Of a DNA stretch of 64,000 nucleotides, positions 1,144-29,646 are shown piece after piece; the first letter of the stretch is position 1, and every line of letters begins with the position of its first letter. A program made the position numbers and the translations under genes. The notes under the pieces were generated by a model. That model made no database searches and had not been told where the DNA came from. It saw nothing but the letters and a program-made list of their open reading frames with translations. The stretch covers positions 8,549 through 72,548 of the forward strand of contig CAJWQJ010000007.1 in assembly GCA_913045315.1 (NCBI GenBank), in the 5' to 3' direction. The DNA comes from an uncultured Chloroflexota bacterium (lineage in GTDB: Bacteria; Chloroflexota; Dehalococcoidia; Lucifugimonadales; UBA1127).

Positions 1144-2514
1144 ATGAAATCAATATACAGATCCATACCAAGCATTGATAAGGTTTTAAACCATCCTAAG
1201 CTTCTGTCCATGAAAAAGGAACATCCAAGAAATCTTCAGCTTTATTTTGCTAGAAAAACAATCCAGTCTTATAGACAAGCCCACTCTGAACTTACTTCCA
1301 TACCAACTATTGAGAATATTGTTGATGAGATTCTCAACAATATAGATAAATTGAAAACATCCTCACTTAAAAGCGTTATTAATGCTACAGGTGTTATCCT
1401 ACATACTAACTTAGGTAGAGCACCGCTAAGTGACACAGCTAGCCACATCATGTGTCAAATAAATTCTAATTATTCAAACCTAGAATATGATCTTAATACA
1501 GGAAAACGACTTACAAGATTATCGCATGTGGAGGAACTTTTTCAATTCTTAACTGGAGCCGAATCTGTACTAATAGTCAACAATAATGCTTCAGCAATTT
1601 TTTTAGTTGCTTCAGTGCTAAGCAAACAAAAAGAAATTCTAATCTCAAAAGGGGAATCAGTAGAAATAGGTGGCGGATTTCGTATATCAGATATAATCAA
1701 CGAATCAGGAGCTAAACTAATAGAAGTAGGAACAACTAACAAAACATACATTGAAGATTACCAAAAAGCTATCACCAGTGAATGTAATGTTTTACTAAAA
1801 GTTCATACTTCAAATTTCAAAATTATTGGATTCACTGAATCAACAGAAATAGAAGAAATGGCGAGATTATCTCGAGAAAATAATCTGTACATGATCCATG
1901 ATTTAGGAAGTGGATGTTTGGTAGATTCAAGCAAATACGGACTTAATCATGAACCCACAGTGCAAGAAAGTATACAAGCAGGAATGGATCTCGTGTTATT
2001 TTCCACCGATAAACTATTAGGCGGGCCTCAAGCAGGAGTTATATTGGGCAAGAAGGAACTTATTGATCAAATAAAAATACATCCATTGGCAAGAGCATTA
2101 AGATCAGACAAAGCAAGTATTGCAGGACTAAGCGCTACCCTTATGCATTATGTAAACCAAGAATTTGAAAAGGAAATTCCTATTTGGAGAATGATTAGCA
2201 GAACTACAGAAGATGTATTAACAACTGCACAAAAATGGAATTCAATGTTCTCAGGAAGCGAAATAATTGCTGGGGAATCAACAATCGGAGGAGGAAGTCT
2301 ACCCGGTGAAACAATACCAAGCTGGCTAATAGGGTTTAAAGAGGATATCCACTTCTCATCTTATGAAATGGCAAAAATATTACGTAATGAAATTCCAATT
2401 CCAATCATTGGGAAAGTTCAACAAGACAAATTTCTGCTTGACCCAAGAACTGTTCTTATGGAAGAAGAAAAATACCTTGAAAATGCAATCATCAAGACTT
2501 TATCAAAAAATTGA
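1144..2514 (+). CDS. selA: L-seryl-tRNA(Sec) selenium transferase (selenocysteine synthase)
   Basis: 456 aa. Contains NATGVILHTNLGRAPL and the PLP-lysine block LFSTDKLLGGPQAG, both typical of SelA. Length matches the family. Confidence 0.85.
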   Translation: MKSIYRSIPSIDKVLNHPKLLSMKKEHPRNLQLYFARKTIQSYRQAHSELTSIPTIENIVDEILNNIDKLKTSSLKSVINATGVILHTNLGRAPLSDTASHIMCQINSNYSNLEYDLNTGKRLTRLSHVEELFQFLTGAESVLIVNNNASAIFLVASVLSKQKEILISKGESVEIGGGFRISDIINESGAKLIEVGTTNKTYIEDYQKAITSECNVLLKVHTSNFKIIGFTESTEIEEMARLSRENNLYMIHDLGSGCLVDSSKYGLNHEPTVQESIQAGMDLVLFSTDKLLGGPQAGVILGKKELIDQIKIHPLARALRSDKASIAGLSATLMHYVNQEFEKEIPIWRMISRTTEDVLTTAQKWNSMFSGSEIIAGESTIGGGSLPGETIPSWLIGFKEDIHFSSYEMAKILRNEIPIPIIGKVQQDKFLLDPRTVLMEEEKYLENAIIKTLSKN

Positions 2515-2585: not shown

Positions 2586-3344
2586 ATGACAGATTTCCTT
2601 CTCTTAGACAGTCCAGGACACGGTCCTTGGTTTTGGGATGGAGTAAAGGGTGCAATTGAAGATAACTTAAGAAATAAATCTGAAGTTAGACATTTAAATT
2701 ATCACCCTGGGAAAGTATTTGCTCCAGAAAATCTCAGTAACCTGGATAACAAATATACCTCCTTGGCTGAATATGCAATGAAGACTGTAGATCAAATCAG
2801 GAATGAGAAGCTATCTAACATAATTATCGTTTCTCATTCCTTTTCCGGAATTCTAGCTCTTGAACTTTGCAACATACTAGGTAAAGAAATAAAAGGCTTA
2901 GTATTTATAGGCTCAATAATCCCAGACATGTTTCGCACATCTATGGAAATGATACCTATCCAATTGAGACTTTTACTTATGACTTCTTCATTACTAACTG
3001 GAACTATTTCGTTCGATAAGATTGCAATGCATAGAGAATTCATCCTGAAAATTTTATGTAGTGACGTGCCATATCCCGAAGCTGCCAAGGCAATAGGAAG
3101 GTTAAATCCACTAAATGCTAAAACATTAGGAATGCTAGCAAATCCTGAATCATTTATAAAACTACATAATTCAAAATATGTGATATTAGATAAGAGTCGT
3201 TTAATTCCTAAAAGTCTTCAAAATAATATGGCAAAATATATAAATGCATCTACAATTAATCTTCCATATGGACAAGAAGCCCCATTTTTCCATCCAGAAA
3301 TTATAGCAAATATACTCCTTCAAAAGACACAAGAACCAAGTTAA
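2586..3344 (+). CDS. alpha/beta-fold hydrolase (esterase-like)
   Basis: 252 aa with AAGGAG SD upstream. Has an N-terminal LLLDSPGHGPWFW oxyanion-type block and a nucleophile elbow VSHSFSG. The specific substrate cannot be inferred. Confidence 0.55.
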   Translation: MTDFLLLDSPGHGPWFWDGVKGAIEDNLRNKSEVRHLNYHPGKVFAPENLSNLDNKYTSLAEYAMKTVDQIRNEKLSNIIIVSHSFSGILALELCNILGKEIKGLVFIGSIIPDMFRTSMEMIPIQLRLLLMTSSLLTGTISFDKIAMHREFILKILCSDVPYPEAAKAIGRLNPLNAKTLGMLANPESFIKLHNSKYVILDKSRLIPKSLQNNMAKYINASTINLPYGQEAPFFHPEIIANILLQKTQEPS

Positions 3345-3371: not shown

Positions 3372-3746
3372 ATGAATTTTCAATTAGATGAACAATGGTT
3401 AAGAGGAAATGTAGATCAGTGTTACACATTAATTCAATCCACTGCCCAGGACATTAATAATTACGTATTTTCCTATAACGGAAAATTTGACGAAGAAATT
3501 GGTGGGTTCTACCAAATGGATTGTATAGTAGACTATATTTCAGATGGAATCATAATTGAAGCAGGTCTTATAGAACTTTGGGAAGATGATGATGGTGAAA
3601 AAACTCTTATGAAAATTTATGAGCTTCGTCCTGATGTTCCAGACGATTCCTTTATTGATGAATATTCTCACACAAGAGCTTCAGCAATGGATTCAATCTG
3701 CCAGATAATAAAAAAGAGATTCATCTCTCTAGAAATGAATGTCTGA
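3372..3746 (+). CDS. hypothetical acidic protein (124 aa)
   Basis: Clean ORF in a tight gene array, ending in TGATGA. I recognise no family motif. Confidence 0.4.
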   Translation: MNFQLDEQWLRGNVDQCYTLIQSTAQDINNYVFSYNGKFDEEIGGFYQMDCIVDYISDGIIIEAGLIELWEDDDGEKTLMKIYELRPDVPDDSFIDEYSHTRASAMDSICQIIKKRFISLEMNV

Positions 3747-22948: not shown

Positions 22949-23042
22949 GGAGGGATCGCATAGTGGCCTAGTGCGGGCGCCTGCTAAGCGCTTAGGGGCT
23001 CAAAAGGCTCCTCCAGGGTTCGAATCCCTGTCCCTCCGCCAA
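22949..23042 (+). tRNA. tRNA-Ser (anticodon GCU), long variable arm, CCA encoded
   Basis: Acceptor GGAGGGA/TCCCTCC. Anticodon arm GGCGC-CUGCUAA-GCGCU. Variable-arm helix GGGGC/GCTCC. T arm CAGGG-TTCGAAT-CCCTG. Discriminator G followed by CCA. Confidence 0.9.
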
Positions 23043-28519: not shown

Positions 28520-28879
28520 CTAAGAGTTATTAGGGGTACCTGAAGCAGTATTCTTGTCTTTAGAACTAGTAGTTGATGCCCCTTCTATAGTAGAACCTGG
28601 GGAACCATCTTTACTAGAACCTGGGGGGGCATCTTTGGAGCCCTCAGAGGAGTTTTCGGATGATGGTTTATTTGAATCAGCCATAGCACTATTTTTTTTG
28701 CCATAATCATTAACGTACCAACCACTGCCTTTAAAAATTACACCTACAGGACTAATCATACGACGAGTCTCACCATTACAGTCCGTAATAGGACAATTCG
28801 TTAAGGCAGGGTCATGGAAACCTTGTTTGATTTCAAATTCATGACCACACAACAAACAACGATAACCATACGTTGGCAA
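28520..28879 (-). CDS. FmdB-family zinc-ribbon protein with low-complexity Ser/Gly/Pro tail
   Basis: PTYGYRCLLCGHEFE...CP..DCNG zinc ribbon. I place the start at the TTG at 28877..28879, 7 nt after GGAGGTG. The ORF track starts at 28903. Confidence 0.65.
   Translation of the reverse strand: MPTYGYRCLLCGHEFEIKQGFHDPALTNCPITDCNGETRRMISPVGVIFKGSGWYVNDYGKKNSAMADSNKPSSENSSEGSKDAPPGSSKDGSPGSTIEGASTTSSKDKNTASGTPNNS
28591..28638. repeat. imperfect 24-nt tandem duplication (x2) inside the FmdB-like tail
   Basis: tagaacctggggaaccatctttac followed by tagaacctgggggggcatctttgg, 19 of 24 identical. In frame; it encodes the SKDGSPGS / SKDAPPGS units. Contains a G7 run at 28623..28629. Confidence 0.7.
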
Positions 28880-28979
28880 AGAAAACACCTCCAATAAACT
28901 CAATTCTAAAAAAGCGTATCTTGTGAACTATTATAGTGTCAAGTTAAACCATATGATCCAATTAAATTCTTAGATAGAT

Positions 28980-29008
28980 ATATCTTATGGTATAGTTTGA
29001 TAAGATAT
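28980..29008 (+). promoter_or_regulatory. 9-bp inverted repeat bracketing an extended -10 (TGGTATAGT) upstream of the selenoprotein gene
   Basis: ATATCTTAT (28980..28988) and ATAAGATAT (29000..29008) are exact complements with an 11-nt spacer. The spacer region contains TGGTATAGT (28988..28996). The repeat is AT-rich and short, so chance is possible. Confidence 0.25.
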
Positions 29009-29034
29009 TAATTGGAACATGAAGGGAGTCAAAA

Positions 29035-29646
29035 ATGAAAAAAGAAAAAATAGTTCCAGTAACCGTATGGTATGACTACATTTGACCATGGTGTTATATC
29101 GGTCTGGATCGACTGATGCAATTAAACAATGAATACAATATCAAACTAGAAACCAAAGCATTTTTGCTTCGCCCAGATATACCGAAAGGTGGAATAGACA
29201 GGTCAAGCAACAAGGAATTCAGCAAAGAAATGACAGACCCAATAAGGACTGAAGCAGAATCTGCAGGGCTTACAATGTTCCGACAATCTCATACTCCATA
29301 TACAGTCCCTGCTCTTGAAGCTACTGAATTTGCAAAAAATTCAGGGCTTGAACTTCCATTCCATAAAGCAATTTATGAGCATTATTGGGCAAAAAGCGAG
29401 AACATTGAAAATGTTGAAGTGTTAACTCAAATTGGAAAAGATGTTGGACTTGATTCTTCTTTACTTTCCAAAACTCTAATTGATGGAACATATTCCCAAA
29501 CGATTTTAGAACAATATAATGAAGCGAGATCCTACGGAATATCTGGGATACCTGCCATAGCTATAGGTAAATACTTATTCACCGGAGCAAGACCTTATGA
29601 ATTTTTTCAAATGGTAATTGAAAAAGTTTTAGAAGAAAATGAATAA
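29035..29646 (+). CDS. DsbA/FrnE-family thiol:disulfide oxidoreductase, predicted selenoprotein (Sec at codon 17, UPWC motif)
   Basis: ATG at 29035 lies 6 nt after AAGGGAG (29022..29028). It reads MKKEKIVPVTVWYDYI-TGA(29083..29085)-PWCYIGLDRLMQLNNEY..., in frame with the track ORF 29116..29646. The TGA sits where the family's CPWCY(I/L)G motif has its first Cys. A hairpin follows, and selA is in the window. Confidence 0.7.
29093..29122 (+). promoter_or_regulatory. putative bacterial SECIS hairpin
   Basis: The core stem pairs AUCGGUC (29098..29104) with GACUGAU (29111..29117), 7 bp including one G-U. The apical loop is UGGAUC. A lower imperfect helix extends the structure to 29093/29122. The loop starts 19 nt after the UGA. 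Confidence 0.5.

Follow-up and report, generated by a model that had tools for sequence, protein, structure and literature searches.

A DsbA/FrnE-Like Oxidoreductase of a Marine Chloroflexota Bacterium with a Probable Selenocysteine in a UPWC Motif

Introduction

Is a TGA codon that gene callers read as a stop in fact the codon for the catalytic residue of an oxidoreductase? This question is raised by a locus in a stretch of 64,000 nucleotides from an uncultured Chloroflexota bacterium, which is referred to here as the window and to which all coordinates apply. A preliminary description of the locus, made from the letters alone, proposed that it encodes a selenocysteine (Sec)-containing member of the DsbA/FrnE family with the redox motif UPWC. 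The present analysis supports that proposal, in that the TGA falls on the Cys column of the family and is kept in all 80 of the relatives retrieved. We consider it very probable that positions 29035..29646 encode a selenocysteine-containing FrnE/DsbA-like oxidoreductase (PF01323, COG2761), and that Sec is actually inserted at the UGA is something that we infer from the sequence comparisons described below.

Selenoproteins of this type have been known for some time, and the suggestion in the preliminary description that they may have been listed in marine surveys agrees with the literature of 2005-2008. Zhang, Fomenko and Gladyshev reported the "DsbA-like protein" (COG2761, UxxC) in 2005 as a new selenoprotein family of the Sargasso Sea, represented by nine sequences, for which a SECIS element was predicted (PMC1088965). 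The following year DsbA-like selenoproteins were found in the complete genomes of Anaeromyxobacter, Desulfovibrio and Desulfotomaculum (PMC1794560), and a survey of the GOS sequences in 2008 listed 63 sequences of "DsbA 1" (PF01323, UxxC), which were enriched in marine samples (PMC2398784). A DsbA-like selenoprotein was counted in 41 organisms in 2016 (PMC5029168), and a "DsbA-like protein form 1" is listed in reviews of 2022 and 2026 (the latter being PMC13188914). Furthermore, BSepDB (2026) places Dehalococcoidia MAGs among the most selenoprotein-rich bacteria.

The Gene and Its Reading Frame

The mechanical list of open reading frames gives one entry at this locus, an ORF of 176 amino acids at 29116..29646 (+), as the preliminary description had stated. 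This ORF contains neither strand beta1 nor the redox motif of the family. The same frame can be followed upstream to an ATG at 29035-29037, and from this ATG to the TAA at 29644-29646 it forms a single frame that is interrupted by only one TGA, at 29083-29085. A Shine-Dalgarno sequence, AAGGGAG, is located at 29022..29028 (+), 6 nt upstream of the ATG. Each of these elements (start, Shine-Dalgarno sequence and lone TGA) had been claimed beforehand, and each can be read directly in the letters.

The full coding sequence, 29035..29646 (+), thus corresponds to a protein of 203 amino acids with U at residue 17. The conceptual product reads MKKEKIVPVTVWYDYI-U-PWCYIGLDRLMQL..., with the TGA between the two segments. 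The protein starts with MKKEKIVPVTVWYDYIU, which has no hydrophobic leader and no signal peptide, and it ends in ...FFQMVIEKVLEENE, which is without Cys. The TGA at 29083..29085 (+) would encode U17, the nucleophilic first position of UPWC as judged from the alignment with CPWC proteins. The resolving residue of the UxxC motif is Cys20, encoded by the TGT at 29092..29094 (+), a column that is invariant in an 81-sequence DNA alignment (T10, G11). Toward the other end of the protein, the CCT at 29551..29553 (+) encodes Pro173 in the sequence G-I-P, which is invariant across the homologs (alignments A1 and A2). We take this Pro to be the one in the cis-Pro loop of the thioredoxin fold, which lies opposite the active site.

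Protein Family and Predicted Fold

Membership of the DsbA/FrnE family, which had been assigned from the translation, is borne out by both profile and structure searches. With U written as C, the window protein matches the PF01323 DSBA profile at 99.7 bits, as compared to a cut-off of 25.6; the match covers residues 9-194 of the protein and positions 2-189 of the 191 positions of the profile. Among solved structures, the best sequence match is FrnE from D. radiodurans (5cnw; E = 1.7e-13), and the alignment spans FrnE residues 11-215 of 260. In this alignment, VDIWSDIACPWCYIG of FrnE pairs with VTVWYDYIUPWCYIG of the window protein, so that CPWC is opposite UPWC.

Among about 5.8 billion proteins searched, 58 relatives were identified. 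The closest of them are about 126-187 amino acids long, cover about 60-88% of the query and start just past the motif (for example, MGLDRLT... or MGLERVD...). Remoter relatives are full length (198-248 amino acids) and have D(Y/F)ICPWCY(I/V)G. The TGA of the window occupies the column of the first Cys in the CPWC of these Cys homologs (alignment A1), and the same column agrees in FrnE. An alignment to PF01323 and FrnE homologs had been suggested as a check on the proposed Sec position, and its outcome is the one that was predicted.

The fold was modelled with AlphaFold on P0009, the closest full-length Cys homolog. The model is confident (pLDDT 93.4) and has strand beta1 at residues 13-20, Cys at residue 24 and helix alpha1 at residues 25-37, which places the Cys at the N-terminus of the helix. 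Its top fold match is FrnE (TM 0.78), after which come SCO1869, HCCA isomerases and kappa-class GSTs; the matches to true DsbAs are weaker (TM 0.5-0.6, with 12-18% identity). The N-terminus of the window protein has no signal peptide and therefore, judging from this feature, the protein is most likely located in the cytoplasm. There it probably acts as a reductase or isomerase, rather than as a periplasmic oxidase.

Conservation of the TGA in Related Genomes

When GTDB was scanned with the narrow alignment A2, using one genome for each species, 80 related loci were obtained, all from Dehalococcoidia or Chloroflexota MAGs. The tblastn matches at these loci extend through query residue 17, and TGA is present at the Sec column in 80 of the 80, each of which represents a different species. 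The codon lies in the context WYDY(I/V)-TGA-(P/A)WCY(I/V)GL, and the protein identity across the 80 species is 44-59%. Such a pattern is far beyond chance. One rare change directly after the Sec codon occurs at L013:4046-4048 and the following codons, where U-A-W-C replaces U-P-W-C (VWYDYV*AWCYVGL).

The twelve closest genomes keep the upstream neighborhood nadB-nadC-dtd-fmdB and, therefore, their loci are positional orthologs of the window gene; one of them (L012) also has leuS downstream. The dtd-fmdB-DsbA-like arrangement is likewise kept in the 12. In the window, the FmdB-family zinc-ribbon gene (TIGR02605) is at 28520-28903 (-), divergent from the selenoprotein gene, and it has Cys in its CxxC motifs. 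The 2026 review (PMC13188914) includes a selenoprotein form of the FmdB family with a UxxU motif.

Ahead of the TGA, the sequence changes in the manner of a coding region. At the first, second and third codon positions, respectively, the entropy is 0.55, 0.37 and 1.17 for the nine codons before the TGA and 0.24, 0.00 and 0.79 downstream of it. The nine codons thus vary mainly at third positions, and residues 1-16 are conserved as protein, as one would predict from the proposal. An in-frame start with a Shine-Dalgarno-like motif in front of it is present upstream of the TGA in 79 of the 81 sequences; for example, three orthologs (L001, L006 and L095) have (C)AGGGGGT at the equivalent position.

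These observations bear directly on one alternative, namely that the real product is the 176-amino-acid ORF (29116..29646), that the motif has been lost and that the upstream segment is the decaying remnant of what is now a partial pseudogene. Gene callers and NCBI treat the gene in this way, and an ATG does exist at 29116. However, the TGA and its flanks are kept in 80 of 80 species at 44-59% protein identity, the upstream codons vary chiefly at their third positions, and both the Shine-Dalgarno sequence and the ATG upstream of the TGA are conserved. The preliminary description had noted that homologs consistently beginning at the Met of 29116, with nothing conserved before it, would speak against a selenoprotein; the homologs display the opposite pattern. 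A decaying remnant would also be predicted to accumulate frameshifts and further stops, and none are seen. Moreover, a product of 176 amino acids would lack both strand beta1 and the beginning of helix alpha1. Finally, the starts that have been called in the relatives vary (MGLDRL..., MQTRAF..., MREEY...), as arbitrary first-start calls downstream of a stop would. Taken together, these results make a truncated product very improbable, and we return to the full-length selenoprotein as the preferred reading.

A Cysteine-Containing Ortholog

One positional ortholog, L095, differs from the rest in having TGC (Cys) where its closest relatives read TGA. Its neighbors are dtd and the Zn-ribbon gene, which is the same synteny as in the Sec forms, and its product clusters at 90% identity with a protein of the Sec lineage (P0003). 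Judged by their codons, L095 and its TGA relatives are a classical Sec/Cys pair, one nucleotide apart. The natural one-nucleotide pair is formed by L095:1487-2122 and the corresponding genes of L001 and L006, and the Cys member is known from a single ENA contig of 2.6 kb. As to the codons that close relatives might have at this position, TGA (80/80) and the TGC of L095 are the ones found; sense codons other than Cys, or frameshifts in the upstream segment, which the preliminary description had named as signs of a pseudogene, were not seen among them.

Since a one-base change converts the codon to Cys and since the close ortholog L095 reads TGC, one might ask if the TGA simply reflects an error of sequencing or assembly and should read TGC or TGT. 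However, the 176-amino-acid ORF, which implies the same stop, is found on 10 independent contigs from several sources (NCBI, JGI, ENA, Logan and Tara, the Tara label being COG2761), and the 80 genomes with the TGA were assembled independently, some of them as closed long-read chromosomes. The probability of an error is consequently negligible, and the TGA is best regarded as genuine.

The Genetic Code and the Selenocysteine Machinery

TGA is used as a stop codon elsewhere in the window. It ends six of the 52 long ORFs, selA included, and a systematic scan of the 64 kb for in-frame TGA codons, in which short intergenic candidates were included, identified the DsbA-like gene as the sole convincing case. 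Therefore, as had been argued beforehand from a few genes that end in TGA, the codon is recoded locally and the code has not been reassigned. One candidate in this part of the analysis was rejected. The ORF at 2586..3344 and the same-frame ORF at 3372..3746 were considered as a possible Sec fusion of the published "DsbA-like form 2" type. They are, however, separated by two stops (...QEPS*AS*NDK...), and for ORF 2586..3344 only a weak match to an alpha/beta-hydrolase domain (Abhydrolase_6) is recorded on the public contig.

The presence of selA in the same window, which the preliminary description had cited as supporting context, is confirmed. The gene for L-seryl-tRNA(Sec) selenium transferase is at 1144..2514 (+) and matches TIGR00474 at 530.4 bits (cut-off, 267.9); a PF03841 SelA domain is also recorded on the public contigs. 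Upstream of selA are cytochrome c maturation genes (ccmB and a ccmC-like gene), and downstream is a gene with a weak match to an alpha/beta-hydrolase domain. The gene stands alone in the window and in the adjacent sequence (L092:1-10000), with no adjoining selB, selC or selD; in this it differs from the selAB or selABC clusters that are common in other bacteria.

Within the window, selA is the only component of the Sec machinery that was found. Neither selB, selD nor a gene for tRNA-Sec was detected in the 64 kb or in the 10 kb past its left edge, beside selA. Ten large ORFs were inspected as candidates for selB or selD and none of them encodes either protein; they encode DnaK, UvrB, an ABC-transporter substrate-binding protein, two ABC exporter permease/ATPase proteins, methylmalonyl-CoA mutase, RuvB, DAHP synthase, an aminotransferase and RibD. 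An Rfam scan of the whole window at the gathering thresholds returned no SECIS or tRNA-Sec family, and no tRNA whatever was detected when the sequences flanking 60 related loci were scanned. ARAGORN predicts a 93-nt tRNA-Ser (GCU) at 22949-23041 (+); its anticodon is GCT and, hence, it is not tRNA-Sec. The Rfam gathering scan lists two other tRNAs only and does not include the one at 22949-23041.

A further alternative is that the TGA is translated, but as a standard amino acid, either because near-cognate decoding reads through it (Trp or Cys) or because TGA has been reassigned across the lineage. In its favor are the missing tRNA-Sec, selB and selD genes in the window and the 10 kb beyond, and the occurrence of the hairpin described in the next section in Cys forms too. 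Reassignment is ruled out by the six long ORFs that end in TGA and by the presence of just one convincing in-frame TGA in the 64 kb. With regard to read-through, the TGA is placed exactly on the catalytic Cys column, which is the classic signature of Sec rather than of a leaky stop, and both the family and the lineage are documented users of Sec. In addition, selA is present, and this gene is not known to have any role besides making Sec-tRNA(Sec). A standard amino acid at this position therefore appears improbable, and Sec remains the residue that we would assign to it.

The Hairpin Downstream of the TGA

The preliminary description had pointed to a stable hairpin 12 nt after the TGA. A SECIS-like hairpin is indeed present at 29097..29118 (+), where 29097-29104 pair with 29111-29118 and the loop is UGGAUC (29105-29110). 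The stem has 8 bp and starts 11-12 nt past the TGA, and there is a G within the small apical loop. The 11-nt spacing and the G in the small apical loop fit the minimal SECIS of E. coli fdhF and the bSECISearch consensus. The hairpin is thus compatible with a bacterial SECIS.

How unusual the structure appears depends on what it is compared with. When the hairpin region is folded as a plain 63-nt stretch, it is unremarkable relative to dinucleotide shuffles (z = -0.48). Relative to synonymous recodings of the same peptide the hairpin is more stable, -9.0 versus -3.7 +/- 2.2 kcal/mol (z = -2.4, p = 0.027), and for 65 distinct sequences treated in the same way the mean z is -1.74, with 51% having p <= 0.05. 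A covariance-model search of positions 29000-29250 against Rfam gave no relevant match at E <= 10.

The hairpin is present in nearly all of the 80 relatives, in one of two registers (i+j = 51 or i+j = 52). The register follows the peptide (...DRL versus ...ERV), so that the structure is shifted by one nucleotide between sublineages. RNAalifold, when applied to the ungapped 81-sequence alignment, returned no consensus structure and no pairs because the hairpin uses two registers. For the same reason, the pairs were counted by a script. There are a few compensatory changes. At pair 21-30, the U-A of the window is replaced by C-G in its relatives (synonymous GGU/CGA versus GGC/AGG), and the C-G of pair 18-34 is flipped to G-C in L061.

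The same stem-loop, however, occurs in Cys homologs. As a control, Cys homologs were scored with the expectation that the hairpin would be absent from Cys forms; several of them carry it, and the hairpin was rejected as a Sec-specific mark. Cys homologs that encode CPWCYIGLDRL form the same stem-loop, with z values from +0.42 to -2.53 (n = 7), and the hairpin is retained in the Cys ortholog L095. A common stem-loop, AUCGG(C/U)CUGGA(C/U)AGGCUGA, is found in four Cys homologs (L084, L089, L090 and L095) and in Sec forms, and in these four the Arg of the stem-loop is encoded by AGG despite genomes of 55-57% GC. Three of them (L084, L089 and L090) are just 33-37% identical to the window protein, and L095 is a near-identical ortholog. 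Therefore, the hairpin is supportive evidence only and does not discriminate between Sec and Cys forms. The claim of a hairpin after the TGA holds as to its presence and position, and it is weaker as evidence than had been implied.

In the Cys forms, the hairpin may be a fossil SECIS or it may be a structure that predates Sec. Because the stem-loop is common to Sec and Cys forms, we also raise, as a tentative idea that is less likely than not, that the hairpin may be a standing SECIS-competent structure, in which case a single TGC/TGA change in either direction would switch the protein between Cys and Sec, a toggle that could have been used repeatedly. If true, the Dehalococcoidia DsbA-like family would be a natural Sec/Cys toggle and not a one-off recoding event.

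Proposed Mechanism

From the arrangement of the locus, one can predict how the protein would be made and how it would function. Translation would begin at ATG 29035, and Sec-tRNA(Sec) would be inserted at UGA 29083-85 in place of termination. Synthesis of the Sec-tRNA(Sec) would fall to SelA, whose gene is in this window, and SelB would be expected to deliver the tRNA to the hairpin 11 nt downstream of the UGA. In the folded protein, whose thioredoxin fold has a helical insertion, helix alpha1 would carry U17-P-W-C20 at its N-terminus. Selenium confers a higher nucleophilicity and a lower pKa. Presumably, U17 attacks substrate disulfides or other oxidized thiols, and the mixed selenenylsulfide would then be resolved by C20, as in CxxC oxidoreductases.

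Annotation and Significance

That standard gene callers would truncate this gene had been predicted, and the databases bear this out. The exact 176-amino-acid ORF is deposited at NCBI as MBH52356.1, "hypothetical protein [Chloroflexi bacterium]"; the contig also exists in Tara Oceans assemblies and in the MAG GCA_002717925.1. The orthologs are named either "DsbA family protein, partial" or "hypothetical protein" and have arbitrary starts after the TGA. The window gene thus adds a mis-annotated member to a selenoprotein family that has been known for two decades, in a lineage recognized as rich in selenoproteins.

No new biological principle emerges from this locus, the family, its UxxC motif and its marine enrichment all having been described in 2005-2008. 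The practical value of the result lies in annotation, as there are truncated entries in at least 80 Dehalococcoidia/Chloroflexota species. Since the public entries are without the catalytic motif, counts of both selenium use and redox capacity come out too low for an abundant marine lineage. The TGA/TGC ortholog pair, together with the hairpin that its members share, could also serve as a natural system for studies on Sec/Cys exchange.

Comparison with Known Systems

The hairpin resembles fdhF-type SECIS elements of E. coli in being inside the coding region, with a stem 11 nt past the UGA, and in having a small apical loop with a G (UGGAUC in the window, GGAC or GAG in relatives). It differs from them in having no similarity to curated RNA families, in its shifting register and in being shared by Cys homologs.

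As for the protein, it resembles periplasmic DsbA of the E. coli type in that its thioredoxin fold has a helical insertion and a cis-Pro loop and in that helix alpha1 has a CxxC-type motif at its N-terminus. However, the window protein has no signal peptide, its strand beta1 begins at about residue 6, and its motif is UPWC rather than CPHC. The resemblance to D. radiodurans FrnE, a cytoplasmic disulfide oxidoreductase (PDB 5cnw, 5co3 and 5xwh), is closer. The two proteins have the CPWCYIG context in common, both are without a signal peptide and, based on the P0009 model and the alignment, both have a DsbA-like fold whose helix alpha1 carries a CPWC-type site at its N-terminus. Their identity is about 29-30%, and FrnE uses Cys where the window protein has Sec. 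FrnE is also longer, having 260 amino acids and a C-terminal tail with further cysteines (Cys239, mutated in PDB 5cp1) that participates in the redox cycle; this tail is absent from the window protein, which at 203 amino acids ends at about FrnE residue 215.

The known system that is most similar is the DsbA-like selenoprotein form 1, which has the same family assignment (PF01323/COG2761), a UxxC motif in which Sec takes the place of the first Cys, a stem-loop right after the UGA with a G in the apical loop and a marine metagenomic habitat. The published representative of this family is NIP15863.1, and the window protein is putatively placed with "DsbA 1" rather than "DsbA 2". Nothing essential separates it from form 1, and this copy comes from a low-GC (about 35%) marine member of the Chloroflexota.
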